This document shows, in pieces, positions 2,545 to 51,606 of a DNA stretch of 64,000 nucleotides. The notes beneath the pieces were generated by a model that was given only the letters and a program-made list of their open reading frames with translations, had not been told where the DNA came from and did not search any database. Every line of letters begins with the position of its first letter. Position 1 is the first letter of the stretch. The stretch is from Dehalococcoidia bacterium (GTDB lineage Bacteria; Chloroflexota; Dehalococcoidia; Lucifugimonadales; UBA3495), in the NCBI GenBank assembly GCA_965218875.1, contig OZ244707.1:2000504-2064503 (forward strand), read 5' to 3'. The position numbers were made by a program, and so were the translations under genes.

Positions 2545-2845
2545 CAGCAAAGAAAAGCCCCGTCCCCTTATTAGGGACGGGACTTCATTCAATCCCGCGG
2601 TACCACCCTATTTGTCCCGGGTTCTCCGGGGCCTCCTCAGCAGGGCACCAACATGCCCCGTCGTTGCTAACGGGCGACGACCCCGGCCTGGCTTACTCGC
2701 TCTTCCCCAGGATCTTCCCAGATTGGAAGGCCTTCAGCCGGCGGCTCCGGAGGGATTTTCTCGTGAGCTAGGCGGGCCTGCTTCCACCGTACCAGGCTCG
2801 CTATCCGCCGCCGCTACGTTACTCGTCTCCATCACAGCCTTTGTA
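2545..2845 (-). promoter_or_regulatory. T-box leader (tRNA-sensing riboswitch) upstream of the AHAS paralog
   Basis: On the minus strand: stem I base GUGAUGGAGACGAGUAAC, AG-bulge AUAGCGAG, T-box sequence AAUAGGGUGGUACCGCGGG (2594..2608 on plus), then terminator CCCGUCCC-UAAUAAG-GGGACGGG followed by GCUUUUCUUU (2545..2581). Confidence 0.8.
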
Positions 2846-2851
2846 GTGAAG

Positions 2852-2881
2852 ACCGTACCACAATGCCGGTTTTGGTGTCAA
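2852..2881 (-). promoter_or_regulatory. Putative sigma70-type promoter for T-box leader 1
   Basis: Minus strand TTGACA (2881..2876), 18-nt spacer, TACGGT (2857..2852), just upstream of the stem I base. Confidence 0.45.
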
Positions 2882-2949
2882 TATTCAGAGGCGGGTGCAA
2901 AACAGGAGCTGACCTGAAGTCGGCTCAGGCGTGAAAAGGCCCCGGCGGC

Positions 2950-3180
2950 TTACTCCGGATCCCCGTCCTCCAGCCAGCCGTACCGCTGGGCCAGCCGCAC
3001 CCACAGCCGTCGGGTCTGAGCCGTGTCCCTTCGCACCTCTTCCAGCAAATCGCCCAAGTGTTCCAAGCTGGCCTGCTGCCGCTCGGCTATTGAAGTCAGT
3101 AAACCGACTTGCGCCTGTTGCCCTTCGGCGATGGACTCCAGCCTTTCCACCCTTCTCTCTATGTCCCCGGTCATGGCCAT
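2950..3180 (-). CDS. Small coiled-coil protein, unknown function
   Basis: 76-aa ORF with heptad-like ERRVERLESIAEGQQAQV...; purine-rich GGGGGCGAGGG immediately before the ATG and a perfect TATAAT upstream. Confidence 0.45.
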   Translation of the reverse strand: MAMTGDIERRVERLESIAEGQQAQVGLLTSIAERQQASLEHLGDLLEEVRRDTAQTRRLWVRLAQRYGWLEDGDPE

Positions 3181-3206
3181 CCCTCGCCCCCTATGCCGTT
3201 GCCACC

Positions 3207-3234
3207 ATTATACAGACGGCAAGTTGCACAGCAA
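3207..3234 (-). promoter_or_regulatory. Putative promoter of the small coiled-coil gene
   Basis: Minus strand TTGCTG (3234..3229), 16-nt spacer, TATAAT (3212..3207), about 25 nt before the ATG at 3180. Confidence 0.45.
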
Positions 3235-3651
3235 GCCTTGACACCCTTGGGCCAGGCATAGGCTAGATTCGCTACAGCCCTAGAGGTACCTCTGCGAGTA
3301 TGCACCGGGACGGGGCCACGTGCCCCCTTGCTAGCTCGCCGTGGGATAAGAGAACTGTACCGAGTGCCTAATCCTGGTGCTCGAGGGGGCTTCTGGAAAT
3401 GGAGGTCAAGGCTGCGCGGATTCAGGGGAGCCGGATTATCTTTCGACCGACCAAGTTGATCTTCCCGGGCCGCATGGAGTACGACGGCGAACGTGTCATT
3501 CGGGGCTTTATTCATGCCCAAAGGCGAGTTTTTTGCTCGCCTCGATATCGCGAATTTCCCCGCAACGACGCGTCTCCTGGGGCGCCCCTAGCAGTGATCT
3601 ATGCAGCAAGCAGGACCGGCCTTGGCGGTGTGATAGTATGGACTTCGGTAT

Positions 3652-5503: not shown

Positions 5504-6808
5504 GTGGAGGTGCCGCCCGAAATGGATGCCGCTGACTTATCGAGGTTAGTCTTACTGCTGGTGGGAGTGGCCCTGTCGGCGTTCTTTTCAGCCTCCGAGA
5601 CGGCGTTTATCGCCCTCCCCCGCGCCCGTTTGCTGCACCTGACCAGGATCGGGCGGCCGGGCGCCGGCCGCGTCAACCAGTTGCTCCAGCGCCCGGACAA
5701 GTTCCTCAGCACCGTGCTCTGGGGCAACAACCTAGTCAACACCGCCGTGGCCGCCTTGGGCACGGCGCTGGCGGTGAGCCTGATTGGCAACAACGACTAC
5801 GTGGCGGTGCTGGCCGCGACGCTGGGGGTCACCCTGTTGCTGCTGGTTTTCGGCGAGGCGCTGCCCAAGACCTTCGCCTGGCACCGCTCGGAGAGAGTGG
5901 CCTTTGCCGTGTCGCGTCCCCTGATGGCGGTGGGATTCGCCCTGGCGCCGGCGGTGAAGGCGCTGCAGGTGTTCACTTCCGCGGCCAACCGTTCCCTGGG
6001 GGTTACCAGCGAGTTCCCCCAGATGGGCGAGGAGGAAATTCGCACTCTGATCGCCGCCGGCGCCCAGTCCGGGACGGTGGAGGCCGGCGAAGCCGCCCTG
6101 CTTGAAAAGGTGTTCCGGTTCGGCGACCGGCAGGTGCAGGAGATAATGACCCCCCGGCCCGAGATCGTTTGGCTGGAGCGGGGAGCCACCCTGGAGGCGT
6201 TCCTGGCCATATACTCCAAGCACCGCCACACCAGGTTCCCGGTCTACGAGGGGACCATGGAGAACGTGGTGGGCGTGCTGGCCATCAAGGACGTTCTCTT
6301 GGCCATGGGCCAGCAGCGTCTCCGGCCCCAGGCCAACGTCACCAACTACCTCAGGCCGGCCCACTTCGTTCCGGAAACCAAGACGGTGAGCAGCACCTTT
6401 AGCGAGATGCAGCACAACGGGTACGGGATGGTGCTTACCGTGGACGAGTTCGGCGGCATCGCCGGTCTGGCTACTCTGAAGCAGCTTCAGGAGGTCATCG
6501 TCGGCCAGCTGCGGGAGGAGGGCGCCGCGCCGGAGGAGGCCTTTGTTCCCCTGGATGAGCACACCTACCGGGTCTACGCCGGCGCCGGTATCCTGGACAT
6601 CAACGACGAGTTGGGAGTGGGCCTCCCCGAGGGAGACTACCAAACGGTGGCCGGTTTCATTCTCGACAGGCTCGGCCGGATCCCGGAGGAGGAGGACGTG
6701 CTGGAGTACCAGGACCTGAGGCTCACCGTCAAAGCCATGGATGGGGTTAGAATCGACCAGGTGGAGCTGCGCCGGATACACAGCGGACAGGACGTCGGAG
6801 ACCGATGA
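5504..6808 (+). CDS. CNNM/HlyC-CorC family transporter-associated protein (DUF21 + CBS pair + CorC_HlyC)
   Basis: N-terminal TM domain with SASETAF, central CBS-like region (IMTPRPEIVWL...VYEGTMENVVGVL) and C-terminal CorC/HlyC-like end (TVAGFILDRLGRIPEE). The start may instead be ATG 5522. Confidence 0.85.
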   Translation: MEVPPEMDAADLSRLVLLLVGVALSAFFSASETAFIALPRARLLHLTRIGRPGAGRVNQLLQRPDKFLSTVLWGNNLVNTAVAALGTALAVSLIGNNDYVAVLAATLGVTLLLLVFGEALPKTFAWHRSERVAFAVSRPLMAVGFALAPAVKALQVFTSAANRSLGVTSEFPQMGEEEIRTLIAAGAQSGTVEAGEAALLEKVFRFGDRQVQEIMTPRPEIVWLERGATLEAFLAIYSKHRHTRFPVYEGTMENVVGVLAIKDVLLAMGQQRLRPQANVTNYLRPAHFVPETKTVSSTFSEMQHNGYGMVLTVDEFGGIAGLATLKQLQEVIVGQLREEGAAPEEAFVPLDEHTYRVYAGAGILDINDELGVGLPEGDYQTVAGFILDRLGRIPEEEDVLEYQDLRLTVKAMDGVRIDQVELRRIHSGQDVGDR

Positions 6809-7422
6809 AGCTGGTCATGGTGCGGCACGGGGAAACCGAGTGGAACAAGCTGGGCAAGTTTCTCGGCCATCACGACGTCTCCCTGAACGACCGGGGCCTG
6901 TCCCAAGCTAAGGAAACCGCGCGGGCGGTGACGGACTGGAAGCACAAGGCCGTCTACTCCAGCCCGTTGCGGCGCACCATGCAGGTGGCCCAGGAAATCT
7001 CCCGGCTTAGCGGCATGCCCGTGTCGCCGGTCCCGGGCTTGATGGAGCTGAGCCTGGGGGAGCTCGAGGGGGTCACGGGTGACGAAATGCGCTCCGGTTG
7101 GCCCGAGGTCTACGATGCCTGGCGGGACGACCCGGCGGGCGTCGTCATGCCCGGCGGCGAGTCCCTGGCGGAGCTTCAGGAGCGGGCTTGGAACTCCCTG
7201 GTGGAGCTGGAAGAGGCCCGCGTCGAGGATGAATACCTCATCCTGGTGTCCCACAATTTCACCATTCGCGCCATAATCGGAAGGTTGTTGGGGATGCCCC
7301 TGGCCAACTTCCATCGCATGTCCCTCAGCTTGAGTTCGATCTGCGTGATCGAAAGCAGCCAGTGGGGGCGCCGCCTGGTCAGCTACAACTCCACCTGCCA
7401 CCTGTCGCCGGAGAACCAATAG
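6805..7422 (+). CDS. Histidine phosphatase family protein (phosphoglycerate mutase-like)
   Basis: MKLVMVRHGETEWN... RHG catalytic motif and later SHNFTIRA (H of the second motif). ATGA overlap with the preceding gene. Confidence 0.8.
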   Translation: MKLVMVRHGETEWNKLGKFLGHHDVSLNDRGLSQAKETARAVTDWKHKAVYSSPLRRTMQVAQEISRLSGMPVSPVPGLMELSLGELEGVTGDEMRSGWPEVYDAWRDDPAGVVMPGGESLAELQERAWNSLVELEEARVEDEYLILVSHNFTIRAIIGRLLGMPLANFHRMSLSLSSICVIESSQWGRRLVSYNSTCHLSPENQ

Positions 7423-7430
7423 GGCAGCCG

Positions 7431-8936
7431 GTGACCCCCGTCGCCCGCCTGGAAAGAGAAGTGGCCGCCGCGCTGCGCAGGGCGGGTTACTCCGGCAGTG
7501 GGGCCTCCCTGGTGGTGGGGGTGTCCGGCGGCCCCGACTCCACCGCCCTTCTGCACTGCCTCCATCGCCTCAGCGAGCAGCACCAACTGTCCCTTCACGT
7601 GGCCCACCTGGACCACAACTTCCGGGGCGAGGAGGCCCACGAGGACGCCCGGTTCGCCGCAGCGCTGGCCCGTGAATTGGGCCTGGGCGCTACGGTTGAG
7701 GAGAGGCACGTTGGCGGGGAAGGGCCGCAAGAGGCGTCGTCCTTCGAACAGGTGGCCCGGGAGGTACGCTACGCCTTCCTGGCGGAGGTGGCCAACCGGG
7801 TGGGCGCCGCCGCCGTCGCCGTGGGCCACACCGGGGACGACCTGGCGGAAACGGTGTTGCTTCATATTCTGCGGGGCTCCGGAAGCCGGGGCCTGCGGGG
7901 CATGACTGAGCTATCTCCCTGGCCCTGGTCCCAGGCCGGCCCGTCGTTGAGGCTGTTCCGGCCTTTGCTCCAGTGCACCAAGGCGGACACCGAGGGCTAC
8001 TGCCGGGACCTGGGCCAGACCTACCGGGACGACAGCGGGAATTACCTTTCGCGCTTCGCCCGCAACCGGGTCCGCATGGACTTGTTGCCCCTCCTGGCCC
8101 GGGAGTACAACCCGCGCATCCGGGACTCGCTGGTCGGGTTGTCCCGGGTCGCCACCCAGGAACTGGACTACCTGGAGGGCGAGGTGGACCGGCTTTGGGA
8201 CCAAATGGCCTTGGCGGACCAGGACGCCGTGGAGTTCTCCCAGCCGGGCCTGGTGTCTCTTCATCCGGCGCTGTTGAATCTGGTGCTGCGCCGGGCCTAT
8301 GCCCATCTCCGCGGGGACACCCGCGCCTTGGGCAGGCGTCACCTGGACGCCATGGGGGAGTTGGTCCTGGCGCCGGCCGGGGGGCGCAGCCTGGACCTGC
8401 CGGGGAGGCTGAAATTTCACCGCTCCCACCAACAAGTGTGGTTGACCCGCGACGCAGGCATCCCGTGTCCCTTTCCGGCCATCGAGGGGGAGTATTGGCT
8501 GGACATCCCCGCAAATTGCGAAGGCCTGGCCCCCGTCACGGTTGGACCCTGGCGAGTGTCCCTGGGCCCCGGCGGGTCCGCCGTCCCGGTGCAAGAAACC
8601 CGAGCCGGGTCGAAGGGACCGTCATCCCCCCAGTCCTGGACCGCCCGCTTTCACCGGGCCGCCTTGGGGGATGGGGTACGGATAAGGGGTTGGCAGGCCG
8701 GTGACCGCTTCCGGCCCCTGGGGCTGGGGGGCGAGAAGAAGCTTCAGGACTTCTTCACCGACGCCAAGGCGCCCCGGTCCTGGCGGCAACGGGTCCCGTT
8801 GCTGGTCGCTGCCGGGGGCATCGCCTGGGTGGTGGGGTACCGCATCGCCGACTGGGCCAAGGCGCCGGAGTCCCCCGCCGCCGGAGACGTGCTGGAGATC
8901 ACCTTCTCTTTGGATGAACTGACGGAGGATGAGTAA
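7431..8936 (+). CDS. tilS: tRNA(Ile)-lysidine synthase TilS
   Basis: PP-loop VGVSGGPDSTALLH, HLDHNFRG, and a C-terminal TilS substrate domain (KKLQDFFTDAKAPRSWRQRVPLL). I chose GTG 7431, which is in frame with the track ORF and just past the upstream stop. Confidence 0.85.
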   Translation: MTPVARLEREVAAALRRAGYSGSGASLVVGVSGGPDSTALLHCLHRLSEQHQLSLHVAHLDHNFRGEEAHEDARFAAALARELGLGATVEERHVGGEGPQEASSFEQVAREVRYAFLAEVANRVGAAAVAVGHTGDDLAETVLLHILRGSGSRGLRGMTELSPWPWSQAGPSLRLFRPLLQCTKADTEGYCRDLGQTYRDDSGNYLSRFARNRVRMDLLPLLAREYNPRIRDSLVGLSRVATQELDYLEGEVDRLWDQMALADQDAVEFSQPGLVSLHPALLNLVLRRAYAHLRGDTRALGRRHLDAMGELVLAPAGGRSLDLPGRLKFHRSHQQVWLTRDAGIPCPFPAIEGEYWLDIPANCEGLAPVTVGPWRVSLGPGGSAVPVQETRAGSKGPSSPQSWTARFHRAALGDGVRIRGWQAGDRFRPLGLGGEKKLQDFFTDAKAPRSWRQRVPLLVAAGGIAWVVGYRIADWAKAPESPAAGDVLEITFSLDELTEDE

Positions 8937-9246
8937 CGGCGGCGGCGTGACGGAGAACCGGCGACGGCTTTGGTGAACACGCCGCCGGGGAGGATGTCCT
9001 AAAGTCCCGAAAGAAGCCCCACAAGCTTTGATGGACCATCCTTGACCGGCGCCCGGTTGACCCCAGGGCCTCGGGCCTCTAGGACAGTGTTAATAAAACG
9101 ATTTGAATAGGTCGGCAAGATGGAACCAAGGGCGATAAACTCGCCCTAAGACAAGGCGTGCACGCCCCCTACTGGGACATTACGTTCACCGCCGGAGTGG
9201 TTCACACTAAGCTGATGGTCGTAACCCCAACCGGATGAGGGTGCCA

Positions 9247-10506
9247 CTAACAGGCGGTCTTGGCATTGGGCACAGACAGGGAAGAAGCAACGGGGAACCT
9301 GAATTCTGCGCGTATGGCGTTCACCAACGGCCAATAGTCATTTTCGAAGAAATCCGTGATGACCTGCTTGATCTGTGGCTGGGCTTTCTCGTAATCGGGC
9401 TGAGGTGAGCCTGCCTTTCCGAGAAGGGGCTTGCTGTACACGGTATGCCACGTCTTACTTAGATTCCGTGAGCGACGCGTGGCGACGCCGGGCACTCCAT
9501 TACTTTGGACGAGGTCGTAAAGCCGCTTGCGCGTCTCCTGTGGCCCAGGCCCTATATTCAGAACGAGCCTCCTCTCGCGGTACTTGATTTCGAACAAAAG
9601 GATACGGCCCGATTCCGTCCAGCCTGTTCCGTTCTTGAGTTCAGGTATCTCGTCAAGGTCCGGGGCGTAGAACCGATGATACCACTTGCTGTTGAAATCC
9701 GTTTGTAAAAGGGGAGCATACTGCTCCACCGCTGTATCAATGACATCCCAGCCCTTGGCCTCCAAGGCAGGCTTGGCGTTGATGATGAGGTCAATGGCAG
9801 CCCGATGGTTGTTGTATATCTGCAGAGCCAACTCATCGATATTATCGGTGGTCTCCAACACATGCCTCCGTAAGGTACGGGCGTACTGCTCCAGGAAACC
9901 AGCGACGCTGGTGCTGATGGTCGAGCCGCGCGTCCGCAATGTCCGATCAATGAGAGTGGCAACCCGCCCATAGTCGAAGGGCACGTAACGTTCGGCATCA
10001 TCCTCGGCTTCCGGCTCCATACCATCGGGCGTCAGGAGTATTGGAAACGGATTGAGACCTTCATACTCGCGTTCGACCTCTTCCAGGTAGCGGCGGAGTT
10101 GGCCAGAGTGCTCGCTGGCCCCAATCTTGTTCTCGATGAGGCAGACGAACTCATCAGTCTCGTCTATCAACATGATGTCTATGTTATGGCGCTCGGTGGC
10201 GACCTCGATGTTGCTAAGCTTCCAGCCGTCCACGTCGAGCGGTGTAACGTCCGCGATTCCTCGCGCGCTCGCCGCCGCCTCTGAGAGAAATCTACGGAGA
10301 AAGTAGTCCCGCAATCCGTGTGAGCCAAGAGGGTCAAGGAGCCACGCAAGGAGCGCCGAATGTTGGAGTTCCCTCCGCTCGATCTTGAGCACATCAAACA
10401 GGTTGAATTCCGCTAGAAGGTCCTCTAGCCGCTCCAAGTCCCTGTCCAAGACCAGTGCTTGTAGTGCCTCTTCGGGTGACCCAGTGGCGGGAAGGCCGTT
10501 GGTCAT
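9247..10506 (-). CDS. PD-(D/E)xK nuclease superfamily protein (PDDEXK_4/PF14281-like)
   Basis: N-terminus FNLFDVLKIERRELQHSALLAWLLDPLGSHGL and the core motif DIMLIDETDEFVCLIENKIGASEHSGQLRRY (D..E.K). It sits in visibly lower-GC DNA. Confidence 0.7.
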   Translation of the reverse strand: MTNGLPATGSPEEALQALVLDRDLERLEDLLAEFNLFDVLKIERRELQHSALLAWLLDPLGSHGLRDYFLRRFLSEAAASARGIADVTPLDVDGWKLSNIEVATERHNIDIMLIDETDEFVCLIENKIGASEHSGQLRRYLEEVEREYEGLNPFPILLTPDGMEPEAEDDAERYVPFDYGRVATLIDRTLRTRGSTISTSVAGFLEQYARTLRRHVLETTDNIDELALQIYNNHRAAIDLIINAKPALEAKGWDVIDTAVEQYAPLLQTDFNSKWYHRFYAPDLDEIPELKNGTGWTESGRILLFEIKYRERRLVLNIGPGPQETRKRLYDLVQSNGVPGVATRRSRNLSKTWHTVYSKPLLGKAGSPQPDYEKAQPQIKQVITDFFENDYWPLVNAIRAEFRFPVASSLSVPNAKTAC

Positions 10507-44130: not shown

Positions 44131-44159
44131 TTGACAAGGTATGACCTCGCCTATAGACT
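44131..44159 (+). promoter_or_regulatory. Near-consensus sigma70-type promoter upstream of the M24 peptidase gene
   Basis: TTGACA (44131..44136), 17-nt spacer, TAGACT (44154..44159). Confidence 0.55.
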
Positions 44160-44314
44160 CGGGTGCGCCCACCCCGGCGCGGCGCAGTCGCGGGCCGGAA
44201 CGGGCGCACCGCGGGCCTCCAACCGAAGCCGGGAAAGCCGGCCCTCCCCCAGGCCCTTTCACCGGACCCACCCCCAGGGATTGTTCACCAACCGGATTTC
44301 ACGAGGTGTCGATC

Positions 44315-45616
44315 ATGGCAGACGACAATCAACCCTCCGCTCCCGGCGCCCGGTTCGGCCCCAAGCCGCGCCCGTCCCGGTTCTGCAATCTGGACCGCCT
44401 GGTGGCCGCCATGGAAGCCCGCGGCCTGGACGGCATCCTCTCCTACTACACCCGCAACGTCCTCTATCTGAGCGGGTACGCCTCCGGCGCGACCTCGGTG
44501 TACGGGGAAGCCAACGGCTTTACCGCTTTCGCCATTTCTCGGCATCAGCCCGACCACCCCATCGTCATCATCCCCGACCTGGAGATGAGCTACTTCCTGC
44601 GGGAATCGAGCTGGGTGCGCGACGTCCAGCCCTACCGCAGCGTGATACTCCCCGTGGACATCCCCTGGGAGCGGGACATGATCGACCGCTTCATCCCCAG
44701 GGACGCCCAGGAGATTCCCTGGGTGCAGGAGGCCAAAGGCAAGTATTGCGAGGACCTGGCCCAGGGCTGCGCCCGGGCGCTGCGGGACCTGGGGCTGGAC
44801 CGGGGCCGCGTGGGGTTCGACAACCTCTCCTACGCTCCCATGGTCGCGGAGCATCTGCCCGGCATGGAGGTGGCGGACGCCTACGGCATGATGAAGTTCG
44901 TGCGCATGATCAAGACCGGGGCCGAGGTGTCGCTGCTGGACGAGGCCTCGCAGCTCAACCAGGCCGCGATAGAGCGGACCGTCGGGTCGTGGACCCCGGG
45001 CATGACCTGGCGGGACCTGAATACGGCCTATGCCCTGGAAGTGACCCGCCTGGGCGGGTTCGTCCTCGACCGGGGCAGCCTGGTCCTGGCCAACCCCCGG
45101 GGCGCCGACGTGCCCATGCACCAGCTCTCCACGGGGATCGAGGAGGACTTTACCCTGGAGCCGGGCACTCACGTGATGTTCGACTGCCACGGCAGGTACA
45201 ACAACTACAACTGGGACGGCGGCAAGACCTGGGTGGTGGGCGGCGACGCCAACGACTACGACCGGCGGATCGCGCGGGCCTGCGGGGACGCCATGGAAGA
45301 GGTCCTGCGCTCCTCCCGGCCCGGGGTCAGCCTTAGCCAGGTGCAGGCCCGGGGCCGTCGGGTGCTGGAGTCCCACAACGTGCCGGACAGCAACACGGCA
45401 TTCATCTACTTCCACGGCCTGGGGCTGGACAACAGCGAGCAGGAATGGGGGACGCCGCGGGACTGGACCATGGAAGCCGGGATGGTGCTGGCCGCCCACA
45501 TCTACTACCACGGGGACGAGCGCCACCGCTACTACATCGAGGAGATCGGCGTGGTGACCCCCGAAGGCATCGACCGCTTCTTCACCTGGGACATGAAAGA
45601 GCCGCTGCTGGGCTAG
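44315..45616 (+). CDS. M24 family metallopeptidase (Xaa-Pro aminopeptidase/creatinase-like)
   Basis: N-terminal creatinase-like domain (RLVAAMEARGLDGILSYYTRNVLYLSGY) and C-terminal pita-bread fold (HGLGLD...IEEIGVVT). GAGGTG precedes ATG 44315. Confidence 0.8.
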   Translation: MADDNQPSAPGARFGPKPRPSRFCNLDRLVAAMEARGLDGILSYYTRNVLYLSGYASGATSVYGEANGFTAFAISRHQPDHPIVIIPDLEMSYFLRESSWVRDVQPYRSVILPVDIPWERDMIDRFIPRDAQEIPWVQEAKGKYCEDLAQGCARALRDLGLDRGRVGFDNLSYAPMVAEHLPGMEVADAYGMMKFVRMIKTGAEVSLLDEASQLNQAAIERTVGSWTPGMTWRDLNTAYALEVTRLGGFVLDRGSLVLANPRGADVPMHQLSTGIEEDFTLEPGTHVMFDCHGRYNNYNWDGGKTWVVGGDANDYDRRIARACGDAMEEVLRSSRPGVSLSQVQARGRRVLESHNVPDSNTAFIYFHGLGLDNSEQEWGTPRDWTMEAGMVLAAHIYYHGDERHRYYIEEIGVVTPEGIDRFFTWDMKEPLLG

Positions 45617-45728
45617 GGGGGCCGGGGAGGGGGAGGACGGGCTGTCACCACCACACAACAGCTACGTCGACCTGGTAATCCTGCTCTTCCGGAGACGGCC
45701 AACGGCGCCAAGCCAAGGAGGCCAACTG

Positions 45729-45974
45729 ATGAAGCCGTTTAGCAAATGCCCAGTATGCGGTGGAGAAATGACCGGGAAAGAGGTCGAGAAGCTGTTGCGT
45801 GGGGGAGTCAATCTCGCCGCAGTCAAGGTCCATGCAGAGGTCTGCTTACGCTGTGGAGAGCGACTGTACTCTAAAGAGACCGTCGACAACTTTGAGCAGA
45901 TCCGCGAAAAACTTGCTAACCACGAAGTAGGAGAGTTCGATCACATGAGCCGGTCGTTCCTAATCCCTGTCTGA
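45729..45974 (+). CDS. YgiT-type zinc-finger protein (MqsA N-terminal-domain-like), orphan
   Basis: MKPFSKCPVCGGEM...VCLRCGERLYS has two CxxC pairs. AAGGAGG lies 7 nt before the ATG. No HTH domain and no adjacent toxin gene. Confidence 0.7.
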   Translation: MKPFSKCPVCGGEMTGKEVEKLLRGGVNLAAVKVHAEVCLRCGERLYSKETVDNFEQIREKLANHEVGEFDHMSRSFLIPV

Positions 45975-46000
45975 TAGACTTGCTACGAACTCTGCTAGCA

Positions 46001-46173
46001 TCTGCTACCATGGGGACGAGCTCCGCCGCTACTACATCGAGGAGATCGGCGTGGTGACCCCCGAAGGCATCGACCGATCCTTCACCTGGGACGCCCAGGA
46101 GATTCCCTGGGTGCAGGAGGCCAAGGGCAAGTATTGCGGGGACCTGGCCCAGGGCTGCTCCCGGGCGCTGCGG
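46001..46173 (+). pseudogene. Chimeric, permuted fragment of the adjacent M24 peptidase gene
   Basis: 46001..46092 matches 45501..45592 (6 mismatches by my count) and is joined directly to 46088..46173, which matches 44700..44785 (3 mismatches). The 3' piece therefore precedes the 5' piece. Confidence 0.85.
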
Positions 46174-46387
46174 ACGTGCCGCCAGTTGACGTCAGGGGCA
46201 GGCCGGAGGCAGAGACCAGGCCAGCGTGGTGCCGAGGACTTTTGGACACCCCGATTTCCCGAGCATGATCCGAATACCTCTGGTAATATTGAGTGAGCAC
46301 ACTCGTGTTCCGAGCACCCGACACTCTGGGGCGACTACCGGGGTATCGGCACGGTATTATCTCTCGGAGAATGGTAACGGAGACACC

Positions 46388-46603
46388 ATGAACACCAACG
46401 AAAGTTCCATCCGCCACGAAAGAGAGCCTACCGAAAATGCGTTGCCATCCAATACCTCGACGGAGCTTAGCGACCTTGAAAAGAGGCTGTCAGAACTACG
46501 TGCCCAGGGAATCCTGAGCGGAGGTGACGGACCTAGAGAAGCCCTGCGCCCCGTCGCTCACGTTCCTGGCGCCTTGGAGCGATTTCTCAAAGCAAGAGCC
46601 TAG
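46388..46603 (+). CDS. Putative antitoxin of the downstream PIN toxin
   Basis: A 71-aa acidic/helical ORF ends 20 nt before the PIN gene, the arrangement typical of VapB-VapC pairs. No fold was recognised from sequence. Confidence 0.4.
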   Translation: MNTNESSIRHEREPTENALPSNTSTELSDLEKRLSELRAQGILSGGDGPREALRPVAHVPGALERFLKARA

Positions 46604-46623
46604 CCACTGGTGACCAAGAGCCC

Positions 46624-47028
46624 ATGACACCACAAATGCCGTTGGTAGCTTATGTCGACCCGTCCGCGTTGATTTCCGAAGTTCTAGACGAAGAGCTGTT
46701 TCAGAGTTCCACTCGCCAGCGACTTGATGCGTTCCCGCACCTGATGTCATCGAACTTTCTTGAGGCTGAGTTGCGGGTAGCATTTAAGCGGGAACAGGAG
46801 GACTTCGACACAAGTTCGATATCCAGCATCGCTTGGATTTTCCCGGATCGCAGGGTGGACATTGAAATGGCGAGAGTGTTGGAAATCTCCGAACTCTCAC
46901 CCGCTCGCGTTTGGCACCTTGCCACGGCGTTATTTTTCGCAGAGGTCTTGCAGAGTGAGATGGCTTTCATCACACTGGACGAGCAGCAGGAAACCGTGGC
47001 ACGCGAGCTGGGTTTTCCGATTCCATAG
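46624..47028 (+). CDS. PIN-domain ribonuclease toxin (VapC-like)
   Basis: 134 aa with acidic residues spaced as in PIN domains: VAYVDPSALI (D), NFLEAELR (E), WHLATALF and AFITLDEQ (D). Confidence 0.65.
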   Translation: MTPQMPLVAYVDPSALISEVLDEELFQSSTRQRLDAFPHLMSSNFLEAELRVAFKREQEDFDTSSISSIAWIFPDRRVDIEMARVLEISELSPARVWHLATALFFAEVLQSEMAFITLDEQQETVARELGFPIP

Positions 47029-47039
47029 GGAGAGCAACT

Positions 47040-48575
47040 ATGCCGACACTGGATTTCAAGGGTAAGCAGCATGTCTACGCTCACCACCTGACCGTTCCCT
47101 ACCGGCCGCTGGTTGCCGACGTTGAGCGTTCGCTGAACCCGGCAGACGTTGACGACAACCTCATCATCCACGGCGATAACCTGCACGCGCTGAAGGCGTT
47201 GCTGCCCCGATACGCTGGCAAGGTGAAGTGCATCTACATCGACCCCCCCTACAACACAGGCAACGAGGGTTGGGTTTATAACGACAGAGTGAACAGTCCT
47301 CTACTCAAAGAATGGCTCAAAGACCAAAGCCCGGTTGACAACGAGGATCTTGAACGTCACGACAAGTGGCTGTGCATGATGTGGCCCCGCCTTCACATAC
47401 TCAAAGAACTGCTGTCGGATGACGGGGGTTTTTTTATATCCATTGACGACAACGAGCAGCACCATTTGCGGATGCTGATGGATGAGATTTTTGAAGAAAG
47501 CAATTTCCGTAATATTTTCGCAGTTGCTCGTATGAAGAAGAACATTAGAGAGCGTGAACACATAAGAGCATTAAACGAAGGGTATAACTTTGTTCTGTTT
47601 TATTCCAAATCCACGGATGGGTTGATTATACCGCCGACTACATTTCAAGAAAAGGCAGCACGTTGGCACGCTTTTGATGCACCCGGAATTCGTCCGTCAA
47701 TGGAGTACGAACTCTTTGGGACCACTCCCTCAATTGGAAGGCATTGGATGTATTCCCAAGAGAGGGCGGAAGAACTCGTTGCTGATGGCAAACTACGCCC
47801 CAATCCCCGTACTGGTACTCCACAATATTTGCTTGACGCCAGTACCAGCACAATGCTAGACACTAACTGGACGGACATTCAGGAATACGATACGCGCTTT
47901 AACTTTCCTAACGGAGAGAAGAACGCAGGTCTTATTCGGCGAATCTTAACTATGCTTGATGACCCGGATGCCGTCGTCCTCGACTCCTTCGCTGGCTCCG
48001 GCACAACGGCCCACGCTGTTCTGGCACTGAATCAAGAGGATGGCGGCAACCGCAAGTTTATTCTGGTCGAGTGCGAGGACTACGCAGACACCATCACCGC
48101 CGAGCGGGTACGCCGGGTTATCAATGGGGTGCCCGATGCTAGGGACGCCTCGCTAAAGGAAGGGCTTGGCGGCTCCTTCACCTACTGCACGCTGGGCGAA
48201 CCGATTGACGTGGAGGGAATGCTTGCCGGCGACTCGCTGCCGGAGTATTCAGCGCTGGCAGCCTACCTGTTGCATACATCGACCGGGATTTCTGCCGGTG
48301 TGGGCGCAATCGGACCACAGGACGACGACGGCCTGTTTTATAGCAGCGACATCACCAATTACCACCTGTTGTATGAACCCGACGTGGATTATCTTAGTAA
48401 CAACGAAGGGATGCTGAACGAGGAGCGGGCAAGGCGCATCAGCGCTCTTAGCCGACAGGACGGCAAGAGAGCTATCGTCTTCGCTCCGGGCAAGTACATC
48501 GGGCAGCGGGAGTTGACGTCCCTGGGCATCACCTTCTGCCAATTGCCTTACGAGATACACAAGGCGGGGCAATAG
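47040..48575 (+). CDS. mod: Type III restriction-modification methyltransferase (Mod; N6/N4 beta-class)
   Basis: LIIHGDNLHALKAL, IYIDPPYNTG (motif IV), HDKWLCMMWPRL, and motif I VLDSFAGSGTTAHA after a variable TRD-like middle region. Confidence 0.88.
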   Translation: MPTLDFKGKQHVYAHHLTVPYRPLVADVERSLNPADVDDNLIIHGDNLHALKALLPRYAGKVKCIYIDPPYNTGNEGWVYNDRVNSPLLKEWLKDQSPVDNEDLERHDKWLCMMWPRLHILKELLSDDGGFFISIDDNEQHHLRMLMDEIFEESNFRNIFAVARMKKNIREREHIRALNEGYNFVLFYSKSTDGLIIPPTTFQEKAARWHAFDAPGIRPSMEYELFGTTPSIGRHWMYSQERAEELVADGKLRPNPRTGTPQYLLDASTSTMLDTNWTDIQEYDTRFNFPNGEKNAGLIRRILTMLDDPDAVVLDSFAGSGTTAHAVLALNQEDGGNRKFILVECEDYADTITAERVRRVINGVPDARDASLKEGLGGSFTYCTLGEPIDVEGMLAGDSLPEYSALAAYLLHTSTGISAGVGAIGPQDDDGLFYSSDITNYHLLYEPDVDYLSNNEGMLNEERARRISALSRQDGKRAIVFAPGKYIGQRELTSLGITFCQLPYEIHKAGQ

Positions 48576-48585
48576 GGGGTTGGTC

Positions 48586-51126
48586 ATGGAATTGAAAGAT
48601 TACCAAGCCAATGCCCTCGAAGCCTTTACTGCTTGGCTGGATGCGCTCACTTCGGCCCGGTTACAGTCCCAGGCAGCCATAGACGCACTGAGACAGGCCG
48701 GTCCGGCTATCACGATTTCCGATGAACTCTACAACTATCCGAAGATTGCGTGGCAACAGCTGAAGGACGCTGGCCGTGTCGCGGATACCGTCGGCGAGTA
48801 CGTCAGCCGGACCGATGACGCCAATCGGCCTGTTCCCCATATTTGCTTCAAGGTGCCTACGGGAGGTGGTAAGACCCTTCTTGCTGCTGCTGCGTTGCAG
48901 CGGCTTCGGCGGCAAACCGGCCTGACGCTGTGGGTGATGCCAACACGGGCTATATACCAACAGACTAAAGCCGCATTGCGGAGCCGGGAACATCCCTACC
49001 GGCAAATGCTGGAAATCGCCAGTGCCGGGCGGGTCAAGCTGTTGGAAAAGGATGACTTGTTCACCCGGTCAGATATAGAGAATTACCTTTGCGTGATGTT
49101 GTTGATGTTGCCGGCCGCTAACCGGCAGCAAGGGCGCGACTTTTTGCGTATGTTCCGTGATTCGGGGCGTTATCCCACGCTTTTCCCGGACAGCGACGAC
49201 TTGCTTGGCGACGCCAGGCTGCTCAACGACTATTCCGACTTGGAGCGGATTACAGACGACGGCCCTGTTAAACACAGTCTTTTCAACGTGTTCAAGATGC
49301 TGCGCCCTGTGGTGATACTGGACGAGGCGCACAAGGCCTATGGCGCGTCTAATCTGGACGCTAACCAAGAGTTCGCACGCTCGGTCAGCCGCCTTGACCC
49401 CAGCCTCGTGATTGAGCTATCAGCCACCCCCAACCGAGGGATCAGCAACCTGCTGGTTGATATTACCGGGGTGGAACTGCACAACGAGGAGATGATCAAA
49501 CTGCCGGTTCAGGTGACGTCCTTCACCAACGCCGACTGGCGCTACACGCTGGCGCAGGCCCACGACGAGTTGGAACGGCTTGACGCCGAATCGACATCGT
49601 TGCAGATGAGCGAAGGCCGGTACATTCGTCCTATGGCCGTAGTGCGGGTGGAGCGCACGGGCAAAGACCAGCGCGACGGCGAACACGTTCACTCCGAGGA
49701 CGTCAGGGAGTATCTCACCCAGAACCTTGGGGTCCCGGAAAACTCCATTGCCGTTAAGTCCTCTGAGTTGGACGAATTGGGTCGTGACGACCTGTTGTCG
49801 GAGTTTTCACCAGTACGATGGGTAATCACCAGGGCCGCTCTTATGGAAGGTTGGGATTGTCCCTTCGCCTACCTGTTGGTGATGTTGGACAACACCCGCG
49901 CCCAGCGGGCTATTACCCAGTTGGTGGGCCGCGTGATGCGCCAGCCTAATGCCCGGCGCACCGGCCGGGAGGTGCTGGACCAATGCTACGTCTATTGCTG
50001 GAATACCAGCGTGGGAGATGCTGTGGGGCAGGTTAAACGGGGCTTGGAAGAAGAGGGCCTTACAGGGCTGGGCGATGCCGTGATCAGCGGCTCGACGAAT
50101 TTCCGGCGTATCACCCTGCAAAGACGCGAGGAGTTGAAGGGAAGGGATATATTCTTGCCCCTGGTTTTGCATCAGCATGGTGAAGGGTGGGGTGAGTTGG
50201 ATTACCAGAGCCATATCCTGCCCGGAATCGATTGGAACGGAATCGAGTCTCCCGACCCGAAAAGCAGCCTCCCTGACCGGGCTGTTCGGCAATCTGCGAG
50301 CGTCTATTTGGGCGATGCCCCTCCTGTTTTTCACCCCGAAAGAGAGTTGGACATTGCCAAAGAGGTCCAGATAAATTGGTTTGCCCGCCGCTTATCGGAT
50401 GTACTTCCAAATCCGTGGCAAGCGGCACGCCTTGCACAGCAGTTTGTGGAGAAACTACGGGCTGCCGGAGATGCTGAAGACGAAATTTACGACCGCCGCT
50501 CTTACCTAGCCTTCGCTCTGCGGGATTACGTGGCGGATCAGTTGCAACAGCAGGCGGAAAGAGTTTTTCGAGCTAAATTGAAGGAAGGCCAAATACGCTT
50601 TGACTTGGAAGCAGGCCACCCGAATTTCCGCATGGTCGAAAGCTACGAAATTCCTATAACCAGCGATGCGGCGCTTCTGGCGGGGAATGACGGGAGACAG
50701 GTGCAACTTAGCCTGTTTGAACCCGTCTATGTACAGCAGTTCGATTCAACTCTAGAACGGAACTTCGCCCGCTATCTCGATGAACAGAAGGCGCTGAAAT
50801 GGTGGCACCGGGTGGCAGTAAGACAACGTGGCGATTACTATCTCCGGGGCTGGAAACAGGAACGGATTTGGCCTGATTTCGTGGCCATGGGCGGTAAAAC
50901 CGAAGGCAAGCCCCAGGTCCTAGTCTTCGAGACCAAAGGGGAGCATCTCCGCGATAACCCGGACACGGACTACAAGCAGCGGGTGCTTGAGACGCTGGAA
51001 AATGCTTTCAACTACGGAAGAATGACCATCAAAGACGGGCCGGCCAAAGGTACATTTCGTCTCGTGTTCAACGAAACCGAGTTCCCTGAAGCGTTGGCAA
51101 TGCTTGAGGGGGCTTACAAGGTCTGA
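48586..51126 (+). CDS. res: Type III restriction endonuclease subunit (Res; SF2 helicase plus C-terminal PD-(D/E)xK-like nuclease)
   Basis: Walker A FKVPTGGGKT, DEAH-type VILDEAHKA, motif VI QLVGRVMR, and a C-terminal IWPDFVAMG...VFETKGEHL nuclease-like motif. Confidence 0.88.
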   Translation: MELKDYQANALEAFTAWLDALTSARLQSQAAIDALRQAGPAITISDELYNYPKIAWQQLKDAGRVADTVGEYVSRTDDANRPVPHICFKVPTGGGKTLLAAAALQRLRRQTGLTLWVMPTRAIYQQTKAALRSREHPYRQMLEIASAGRVKLLEKDDLFTRSDIENYLCVMLLMLPAANRQQGRDFLRMFRDSGRYPTLFPDSDDLLGDARLLNDYSDLERITDDGPVKHSLFNVFKMLRPVVILDEAHKAYGASNLDANQEFARSVSRLDPSLVIELSATPNRGISNLLVDITGVELHNEEMIKLPVQVTSFTNADWRYTLAQAHDELERLDAESTSLQMSEGRYIRPMAVVRVERTGKDQRDGEHVHSEDVREYLTQNLGVPENSIAVKSSELDELGRDDLLSEFSPVRWVITRAALMEGWDCPFAYLLVMLDNTRAQRAITQLVGRVMRQPNARRTGREVLDQCYVYCWNTSVGDAVGQVKRGLEEEGLTGLGDAVISGSTNFRRITLQRREELKGRDIFLPLVLHQHGEGWGELDYQSHILPGIDWNGIESPDPKSSLPDRAVRQSASVYLGDAPPVFHPERELDIAKEVQINWFARRLSDVLPNPWQAARLAQQFVEKLRAAGDAEDEIYDRRSYLAFALRDYVADQLQQQAERVFRAKLKEGQIRFDLEAGHPNFRMVESYEIPITSDAALLAGNDGRQVQLSLFEPVYVQQFDSTLERNFARYLDEQKALKWWHRVAVRQRGDYYLRGWKQERIWPDFVAMGGKTEGKPQVLVFETKGEHLRDNPDTDYKQRVLETLENAFNYGRMTIKDGPAKGTFRLVFNETEFPEALAMLEGAYKV

Positions 51127-51174
51127 TCACGGGCGCAGTTGTCCAAGCCGCCAGGCGGCGCCCCAAACCAATAC

Positions 51175-51606
51175 CTACCCCGCCGGGCGGAACTTGGGCA
51201 GGCTGACGTTTTCGTTCACGTCTTCGAACACCACCTCCACCGCCATCCCCACCTTTATGGCCGCCGGGTCCGGCGCCACCTCCACCAGGTTGGTGGGCAT
51301 CCGGGGGCCTTCTTGAAGCTCCACTATCGCCGCCACGTAGGGCGTGCGCTCGCGAAAGGCCGCCGTGGGGCCCCGGTGCACTATGGAAAAGGTGTGCAGC
51401 GTGCCCGCTCCCTTGCTCTGGACCCAGTCAGTGTCCCGGGAGAAGCAGTGGGGGCAAATGTCCCTGGGGTAGAAGTAAGCCTGGTCGCAGCTTCGGCAGT
51501 GCCGCAGCCACAGCTCGTGGGCCTTGCACTTCTCCCAGTAGAAGTCCGACTCCGGCTGAGACGGCGGCGCGGGTATGGGCGGCAGGTCTTGCGCCGGTTG
51601 GGTCAT
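51175..51606 (-). CDS. Zn-ribbon/OB-fold protein (DUF35 family)
   Basis: CRSCDQAYFYPRDICPHCFS rubredoxin-like ribbon followed by an OB-fold region (GTLHTFSIVHR...VAAIVELQEGPRM). Confidence 0.8.
   Translation of the reverse strand: MTQPAQDLPPIPAPPSQPESDFYWEKCKAHELWLRHCRSCDQAYFYPRDICPHCFSRDTDWVQSKGAGTLHTFSIVHRGPTAAFRERTPYVAAIVELQEGPRMPTNLVEVAPDPAAIKVGMAVEVVFEDVNENVSLPKFRPAG

Follow-up and report, generated by a model that had tools for sequence, protein, structure and literature searches.

A low-GC restriction locus in a Dehalococcoidia genome as a probable composite of slot, portable toxin–antitoxin-like cassette and recombination debris

Introduction

Restriction operons are more and more often regarded as vehicles for additional defence genes, and the locus described here raises the question of how the small genes found beside such an operon came to be there and what they do for it. 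The locus lies in a 64-kb window (C1:2000504-2064503) of the 3.5-Mb genome of a Dehalococcoidia bacterium (G000; 64.0% GC), and positions in this window are counted from its first letter. Between an M24 peptidase gene and a convergent DUF35 gene, a low-GC stretch (45617-51130) holds on one strand an orphan YgiT-type zinc-ribbon gene, a gene for a 71-amino acid (aa) antitoxin-like protein, a gene for a VapC-like PIN-fold protein, and the mod and res genes of a type III restriction-modification (RM) system. An earlier note on this DNA had read the whole of it as a single defence island. We consider that it is probably a composite of separate pieces in three layers, which are a restriction slot, a four-gene cassette that runs from the antitoxin-like gene to res, and recombination debris.

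That toxin–antitoxin (TA) genes are carried as cargo in restriction operons is already known. PIN-like TA genes have been reported as transcriptionally coupled to type I RM subunits, with none coupled to putative type II enzymes (Matelska, Steczkiewicz & Ginalski, 2017, PMC5499597), and 'guilt by embedding' starts from genes that are nested inside multi-gene defence systems (Payne et al., 2024, bioRxiv 10.1101/2024.01.29.577857). New here are the fidelity of one PIN subfamily to type III and type IIG restriction genes, and a series of restriction loci with and without the pair at one and the same slot.

Results and discussion

Delimitation of the four-gene cassette

Over positions 45617-51130, the GC content is 0.558 versus 0.640 for the genome as a whole, and this places the segment among the lowest 1.2% of the genome's 5.5-kb windows. 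Locally, GC drops from 0.65-0.69 in the flanks to 0.46-0.60 within the stretch, and the GC content at third codon positions (GC3) is 0.57-0.66 in its five genes as against 0.87-0.89 in the genes for the peptidase, the DUF35 protein and a thiamine pyrophosphate (TPP) enzyme. The change in composition after the peptidase stop codon that the earlier note had described is thus real, and the open reading frames (ORFs), their spacing and a scar of the peptidase gene were all found where it had placed them. Here, the antitoxin-like gene (46388..46603), the PIN gene (46624..47028), mod (47040..48575) and res (48586..51126) follow one another on the plus strand, with gaps of 20, 11 and 10 nucleotides (nt), respectively.

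Excepting the target recognition domain (TRD) of Mod, this part of the window is homologous at 81-83% to three other Chloroflexota sequences, namely a 3.09-Mb contig (L012) and two metagenome-assembled genomes (MAGs; L020 and L021). The homology starts at 46237 (L012) or 46259 (L020 and L021) and ends at 51121-51127, i.e. about 130-150 nt upstream of the 71-aa ORF on the left and at the res stop codon on the right. To judge from these alignments, there is a 4.9-kb cassette (~46237-51127) that consists of a leader (46237..46387, plus strand), the antitoxin-like gene, the PIN gene, mod and res. Its neighbours elsewhere differ from those in the window and include Nmad3, HTH and SIR2 genes in L012, while the 11-nt and 10-nt gaps are identical in all three relatives. 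Since other Chloroflexota carry the same four-gene unit at unrelated loci, the cassette would appear to move as one piece, which agrees with the original proposal that the TA pair and the abutting type III genes form a module.

The two large genes were confirmed as type III Mod and Res by the PADLOC run. Mod matches MTase_III at 7e-156 (with a Pfam N6_N4_Mtase domain) and the Mod subunit of EcoP15I (4zcf_A) at 9e-34, and its translation holds IYIDPPYNTG (DPPY) and DSFAGSGTT (FxGxG) on either side of the TRD, motifs that mark it as an N6-adenine methyltransferase of the type III Mod kind. Res, which directly follows and also carries a Pfam ResIII domain, matches REase_III (PDLC03653) at 9e-191 over residues 3-831 and EcoP15I Res weakly (1.3e-3). 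Moreover, its motifs TGGGKT, DEAH, SAT, QLVGRVMR (QxxGRxxR) and WPD...FETK (PD..ExK) are those of a type III Res with a superfamily 2 (SF2) helicase and a C-terminal PD-(D/E)xK nuclease. With all catalytic motifs kept, the system is intact-looking as far as its translation goes, and the ratio of nonsynonymous to synonymous substitution rates (dN/dS) for Res is 0.05-0.07. In such a system, the variable TRD would determine the site at which Mod methylates adenine, and Res would cut the unmethylated DNA. The TRD (~47494-47981) has no nucleotide match in the same-genus genome G001, in the nearly conspecific metagenome contig L041, or in L012, L020 and L021; the GC content of this region (0.46-0.47 at 47250-47999) is the lowest of the stretch, which fits TRD swapping. 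Thus, the locus resembles EcoP15I and EcoP1I in its mod-res order, in the DPPY and FxGxG motifs around the TRD, and in the helicase and PD..ExK parts of Res, whereas it differs from them in that Res belongs to another subfamily (PDLC03653) and two small genes lead the operon.

How the cassette might be expressed is suggested by its leader and by its junctions. In the alignment, the leader block conserved in all four cassette copies holds TGGTAATAT / TGGTAAGAT / TGATAAGAT, and we infer that TGGTAATAT at 46282-46290 is a putative extended -10 promoter. A scan of the leader for consensus -35/-10 elements found no match, and an Rfam search of the conserved leader gave none at E <= 0.1. On the plus strand, a pattern scan of 46600-47100 yielded no terminator-like sites. 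An intrinsic terminator downstream of res or in the intergenic gaps was rejected as a candidate, as the scan gave no more than shuffled sequence did, and the spacer between res and the DUF35 gene folds no better than its shuffles (z = -0.24). The ribosome-binding site (RBS) of mod, GGGAGAG, overlaps the PIN stop codon, and the copies linked to type III genes (the window, L012, L020, L021, L025 and L034) share this junction of PIN stop, RBS and ATG as a conserved nucleotide sequence. A similar layout precedes other downstream genes, i.e. the MmeI gene in L013 and a small ORF in L030, L035 and L036. Taken from the gene layout, the four genes are likely co-transcribed. One transcript from the leader would carry the antitoxin, PIN, mod and res genes, and with the 11-nt gap and the RBS overlapping the PIN stop, mod may be translationally coupled to the PIN gene.

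The PIN-fold protein and its tail-only partner

The 71-aa protein is made up of a short acidic N-terminus and a Phd/YefM tail, without a DNA-binding domain; its last 41 residues are 51% identical to the tail of a 90-aa Phd/YefM antitoxin from the same genome. Its ORF has no Pfam, NCBIfam or PADLOC match, and PADLOC 2.0 has no model for either this protein or the PIN protein. We compiled 26 loci of the PIN subfamily (the window, 21 from genome contigs and four from metagenomes), and in 23 of them a tail-only partner of 61-80 aa (with a ...PGAL.RF.. tail) is encoded upstream of PIN. The two genes are therefore conserved as a pair, as their assignment had presupposed. Furthermore, dN/dS is 0.11-0.21 for the antitoxin and 0.06 for PIN, values that speak for a conserved pair that is functional as protein and under purifying selection.

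The PIN protein (134 aa) scores 22.2 bits against Pfam PF01850, below the gathering cut-off of 23.6, and a sequence search of its family against solved structures gave no hit at E <= 1. Nevertheless, its AlphaFold2 model (predicted local distance difference test, 88; predicted template modelling score, 0.84) shows a PIN fold, for which the best Foldseek matches are Pyrococcus horikoshii VapC4 (5h4g), Shigella VapC (template modelling score of 0.70) and several Mycobacterium tuberculosis VapCs. The protein has more than 120 homologues of 126-140 aa, and over 141 sequences the residues D12, E49, E81, H98, D/E119 and E120 are essentially invariant. More conspicuously, site 95 at the N-terminus of helix 4 (the crossover helix) is an arginine here and R, P, L, Q or S in 129 of the 141, an aspartate being kept only in twelve 'canonical' members of 126 aa. 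In PIN domains, the helix-4 acid is almost always invariant and spans both metal sites (Matelska et al., 2017, PMC5499597). Of the 'VapBC-like' label given to the two genes, then, the PIN fold and the adjacent, conserved pairing stand, while R95, the Pfam score below cut-off and an antitoxin lacking the DNA-binding domain speak against it.

This substitution at site 95 also bears on whether the PIN protein is a nuclease at all. A catalytically dead PIN, with the pair serving as a non-toxic two-protein accessory (e.g. in nucleic-acid binding), is possible though doubtful. It would account for the replacement of the acid in 129 of 141 homologues and for the sub-threshold Pfam score, given that PIN domains need at least four acids in the right positions and that the one on helix 4 is mechanistically central (PMC5499597). 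Yet the essentially invariant residues other than H98 (D12, E49, E81, D/E119 and E120) still provide at least four acids near the site, and the toxin-neutralising tail of the antitoxin is retained under selection. Moreover, the PIN genes of L025 (6001-6393) and L028 (6001-6414) have in-frame stops, and such pseudogenised copies are often seen for toxins.

A canonical pair of a 90-aa Phd/YefM antitoxin and a 126-aa PIN protein (Pfam, 34.4 bits) is found elsewhere in the same genome (C1:1292410-1293062; L050, 6992-7644, minus strand). It does not lie beside RM genes and is followed by a convergent 429-aa gene without Pfam matches. Like Phd/YefM-VapC pairs in general, the pair in the window has its antitoxin gene upstream of the PIN gene, a homologous antitoxin tail, and a PIN fold nearest to that of VapC. 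In contrast, it lacks the DNA-binding and dimerisation domain of Phd/YefM as well as the helix-4 Asp, its genes are separated by a 20-nt gap instead of overlapping, and it is linked to RM genes, which its canonical relatives are not.

Linkage of the pair to restriction genes

About 20 of the 26 subfamily loci adjoin restriction genes, and these are of several types. About ten adjoin type III genes (a remnant in L029 included), with mod or mod-res following the pair on the same strand in the window, L012, L020, L021, L025, L033, L034, L039 and L072. Another nine adjoin type IIG enzymes, which are either MmeI-like, convergent Eco57I-like or, in one case, type ISP. Here, an MmeI-type enzyme follows the pair by 11 nt in L013, a type ISP enzyme is present in L037, and in seven Dehalococcoidia MAGs the pair abuts a convergent gene for a conserved Eco57I-like enzyme (~1,100 aa; PADLOC REase_MTase_IIG, 6e-66), these loci being L027 (6444-9743), L028, L030, L032, L035, L036 and L022. 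A type II methyltransferase gene is found ~1.1 kb downstream of the pair in L023, and in L038 the PIN gene is separated from an AriA-like ATPase gene by a 17-codon mod remnant (MPTPDFQDKQHIG*; 6403-6455). No RM neighbour was recognised in L015, L026, L031, L040 and L071. On the PIN tree, the types of RM partner are interleaved, from which it follows that partners have changed repeatedly.

Two features of these loci may be added. A second antitoxin-like ORF seems to follow the pair in L030, L035 and L036, as does a second PIN-like ORF in L035. By the pair in L015, there is a convergent 974-aa gene (6538-9462) that has no Pfam or PADLOC match and is faintly similar to IIG enzymes.

As a control, 17 canonical-like loci from few genera were taken from a 401-genome class-level sample, in which the PIN pairs are of the canonical type except for the copy in G000 itself; at none of them was there similarity to the RM panel within 1.5 kb. 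The adjacency of pair and mod-res could in principle be chance packing in a symbiont-type genome rich in RM and TA genes, but we regard this as very improbable. In its favour, the 3.5-Mb genome has ~20 candidate DNA methyltransferase genes, and an enrichment of RM and TA genes has been reported for sponge-associated microbes (PMC5649159, PMC5099237). Still, ~20 methyltransferase genes in 3.5 Mb would place a pair next to one by chance in only a few percent of cases, as compared with the ~20 of 26 loci that adjoin RM genes. In addition, the four-gene unit is found at three different kinds of locus, and the junction between its PIN and mod genes is conserved.

The arrangement is comparable with the PIN-type TA genes in type I RM loci described by Matelska et al. 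(2017), as the genes share an apparent operon, their arrangement varies between close relatives, and the antitoxin is sometimes missing. It differs in that a single PIN subfamily is linked to both type III and type IIG enzymes. There is also a likeness to the embedded defence genes of Payne et al. (2024), in that small TA or defence genes occupy swappable slots (relatives have HicB or HicBA, GIY-YIG and insertion sequence (IS) genes), although the pair here heads its operon instead of nesting between the genes of it.

The peptidase-DUF35 slot

In all three related genomes compared, the interval from the peptidase gene to the DUF35 gene is occupied by a type III mod-res pair. In G001, the order is peptidase, ~60 nt (some 34 of them unaligned), mod, res and the convergent DUF35 gene, at 85-87% identity to the window, and positions 45623-47016 of the window have no counterpart there. 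The GC3 of mod-res in G001 is 0.64-0.68 versus 0.68-0.71 in core genes, and so the composition of the type III system looks near-native in that genome. The possibility, raised beforehand, that relatives carry the same genes at the same place with native composition is hence realised for mod-res in G001, although the antitoxin, PIN and YgiT segment is missing from it.

The comparison with L041 gives a different picture of distances. While its flanks are 95-98% identical to those of the window, the mod-res genes in its slot are only 82-86% identical; the synonymous divergence (dS) of the peptidase gene between the two is 0.12, and that of res between the window and G001, L012 and L020 is 0.6-1.1. 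In fact, the three mod-res alleles of the slot are mutually about equidistant (~85%) irrespective of the distance between their hosts, and the alleles in high-GC species keep a GC content of ~57%, which is foreign in composition. These patterns are consistent with a slot that would be long-standing in the genus and in which mod-res alleles have been replaced by recombination.

Between peptidase and mod, L041 has a 5' fragment of mod, HicB-HicA, a second peptidase 3' end, a YgiT gene (90% identical) and the first 100 codons of hsdM. Between its mod and res lie a GIY-YIG gene and a DDE_3 transposase (IS) with an HTH gene (7279-8830), an insert that, from its position, probably interrupts the mod-res operon. 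In L011 (G001:C15), the gap between mod and res holds an orphan HicB-like antitoxin gene (8794-9000; Pfam HicB_lk_antitox, 1.2e-9), and HicB-HicA genes are placed between mod and res in L072 and upstream of mod in L041. The presence of HicB or HicBA genes between mod and res suggests that this gap is a second cargo slot of the type III subfamily. Two further ORFs in cargo positions are without annotation, one in the mod-res gap of L034 (8096-8542; 148 aa) and the other in the PIN-mod gap of L072 (5408-6040; 210 aa).

One slot therefore offers a natural comparison of type III systems with the pair (this genome), without it (G001), and with other small TA genes (L041). Comparing the interval across relatives had been proposed as the way to delimit the insertion, and it does set slot, cassette and debris apart.

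Role of the pair

We view the antitoxin/PIN pair as probable swappable TA cargo, which could either stabilise the cassette by addiction or act as an abortive-infection line behind restriction. The alleles of the slot that are without TA genes, together with the arrangements in which a IIG enzyme is convergent, argue for cargo that is separable from restriction.

Several points weigh against this reading, or against parts of it. The PIN protein is without its helix-4 acid and has a sub-threshold Pfam score, and with R95 it may therefore not be a nuclease toxin. The antitoxin is without a DNA-binding domain, which makes classical autoregulation unlikely. The promoter assignment in the leader depends on the conserved TGnTAAnAT. 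As the pair is convergent to the Eco57I-like IIG enzymes, co-transcription with restriction genes is not general. TA-less alleles of the type III RM system occupy the same slot in G001 and L041, which implies that the pair is dispensable for restriction. Between the window and L041, the replaced RM allele may be that of either one. As for sampling, the subfamily loci belong to Chloroflexota MAGs that are related to one another and do not count as independent cases, and the RM panel used for the control was partly drawn from the loci being counted.

Alternatively, the pair might be an integral part of restriction, either as a guard that releases PIN when a phage blocks restriction or host expression, or as a post-transcriptional regulator of the Mod:Res ratio in a new cell. 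This we consider rather unlikely. What speaks for it is that three changes fall together in one subfamily, whose antitoxin has lost its DNA-binding domain, whose PIN protein has lost the helix-4 acid and whose members are linked to RM genes, while the canonical relatives, with a 90-aa Phd and a 126-aa PIN that has D at the helix-4 site, show none of the three. The pair also remains beside RM genes when the type of RM changes, and the RBS junction from PIN to the downstream gene is conserved. Conversely, the RM subfamily is found without the pair in the same slot (G001 and L041), the pair occurs without a recognisable RM neighbour (L026, L031, L040 and L071), and its orientation to IIG enzymes is convergent. 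Put as a statement on descent, that this PIN/antitoxin lineage was domesticated by type III and IIG restriction in Chloroflexota as guard or expression regulator, and is not addiction cargo, is an outcome to which we would give limited credence from the sequences at hand.

A model for a guard of this kind is PrrC from the type Ic RM locus EcoprrI, an anticodon nuclease of the ABC-ATPase type that is restrained by the RM proteins themselves. By analogy, a latent RNase gene would be linked to RM genes in both cases. The present locus differs from it in the PIN fold and in having a small antitoxin as a separate protein.

Whether as swappable cargo or otherwise, the pair is a member of a clearly bounded subfamily, in which the antitoxin is tail-only, the PIN protein lacks the helix-4 acid, and about three quarters of the members are adjacent to RM genes. 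This makes it suited to asking whether such a pair stabilises, backs up or regulates restriction. If the pair is plain cargo, the locus still documents allele turnover and illegitimate recombination at an RM slot.

Recombination debris upstream of the cassette

The part of the low-GC stretch to the left of the cassette is of other origin. It opens with a spacer (45617..45714), of which only the first ~14-23 nt match L041 and G001; the remainder has no match, and the corresponding spacer in L041 is longer and different. Next, the segment 45715..45996 on the plus strand contains the YgiT gene (ORF 45729..45974; 81 aa) with its RBS, AAGGAGG, 7 nt before the ATG. The protein has two CxxC zinc-ribbon motifs and matches TIGR03831 at 34.5 bits (cut-off, 20.2), with no HTH. 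That it is a truncated MqsA was rejected, as 81 aa is the normal full length in a very large family, with more than 1,900 homologues of ~81 aa. It is likewise not an MqsA by score (TIGR03830, 24.8 versus a cut-off of 61.8; Pfam MqsA_antitoxin, 20.7 versus 30), and there is no MqsR.

The likely source of this gene is seen in 17 contigs where an 83%-identical copy stands in the order hsdR, DUF4258, YgiT, hsdM/S and overlaps the DUF4258 gene by 14 nt. The homology to L041 and L042 reaches from the RBS, which would lie inside the 3' end of a DUF4258 gene, to ~22 nt past the stop codon, and L041 keeps the hsdM start behind YgiT. DUF4258 is a predicted BECR/colicin-like RNase (bioRxiv 10.64898/2026.08.28.747851), and its gene is absent from both the locus and the whole genome (98.5% complete). 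The YgiT ORF has stayed open, with few changes and a dN/dS of 0.21 against L041. Read in this way, the gene is apparently an orphan of the antitoxin type, torn from a type I hsdR-DUF4258-YgiT-hsdM operon with loss of its toxin partner, and the description of it as an orphan without HTH or partner toxin is upheld by the TIGR03831 match, the RBS and a genome without DUF4258. When set beside MqsA/YgiT and DUF4258-YgiT systems, it has the two CxxC motifs in common, and its 81-aa relatives follow and overlap a DUF4258 gene; the differences are the missing HTH (none is expected at 81 aa), the missing MqsR and the missing DUF4258. In L042-L049 (ENA ERZ25071132 / ERZ25072854), the DUF4258 and YgiT genes (2679-3246) lie between hsdR and a fused hsdM/S, and in L045 the DUF4258 gene is missing from the array.

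Downstream of YgiT follows a chimeric scar of the host peptidase gene (45999..46173, plus strand). Its first piece (45999-46092) is 94% identical to the 3' end of the peptidase gene (45499-45592) and is fused to a second (46093-46173) that is 92% identical to a mid-gene part (44705-44785); the two meet at a 24-nt sequence of which the gene contains two similar versions (IDRFFTWD / IDRFIPRD). With identities to the intact gene this high, as against only 78-82% to the G001 peptidase gene, the scar is genuine. It is not a degraded tandem copy, a possibility that we rejected on the grounds that the pieces are permuted, with the 3' end before the mid-gene part. Around the inserts in the window and in L041, parts of the peptidase gene and of the junction between peptidase and mod are present in duplicate, and this points to homology-assisted illegitimate recombination as opposed to site-specific integration. 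An island targeted by an integrase, att sites or a transfer RNA (tRNA) gene was ruled out as well, as the Pfam scan of the ORFs revealed no integrase or recombinase domains, there is no tRNA or Rfam match, and the scar accounts for the only long direct repeats, in keeping with the absence of an integrase and att-like repeats at the borders noted from the outset.

These observations decide how the low-GC stretch as a whole is to be seen. Its reading as one recently acquired defence island (45617-51130) draws on the uniform drop in GC and GC3 and on same-strand, tightly packed genes. We nonetheless judge it improbable, as G001 and L041 hold mod-res at the same site, the portable unit begins only at ~46237, the YgiT gene has its origin in a type I operon, the scar derives from the host peptidase gene, and there is no integrase, tRNA or att site. 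On this point the single island of the earlier note has to be given up, with YgiT and the scar being separate debris. Its view that the components all come from known families is sustained by the TIGR03831, MTase_III and REase_III matches and the PIN fold.

Flanking genes

The native flanks are easily recognised on both sides. To the right, the DUF35/ChsH2-like OB-fold gene (51175..51606, minus strand; Pfam OB_ChsH2_C and zf-ChsH2; GC3 of 0.87) is convergent with res and is 84% identical to the G001 copy at the equivalent position. To the left, the M24 peptidase gene (44315..45616, plus strand; Pfam Peptidase_M24 and Creatinase_N; GC3 of 0.89) has orthologues that are 95% identical in L041, where it is called as 433 aa, and 79% identical in G001. 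In the window, the peptidase ORF opens at 44141, and the 433-aa call in L041 corresponds to the ATG at 44315. By this correspondence, the gene probably starts at ATG 44315, and the first 58 codons of the ORF (44141-44314) would be leader.

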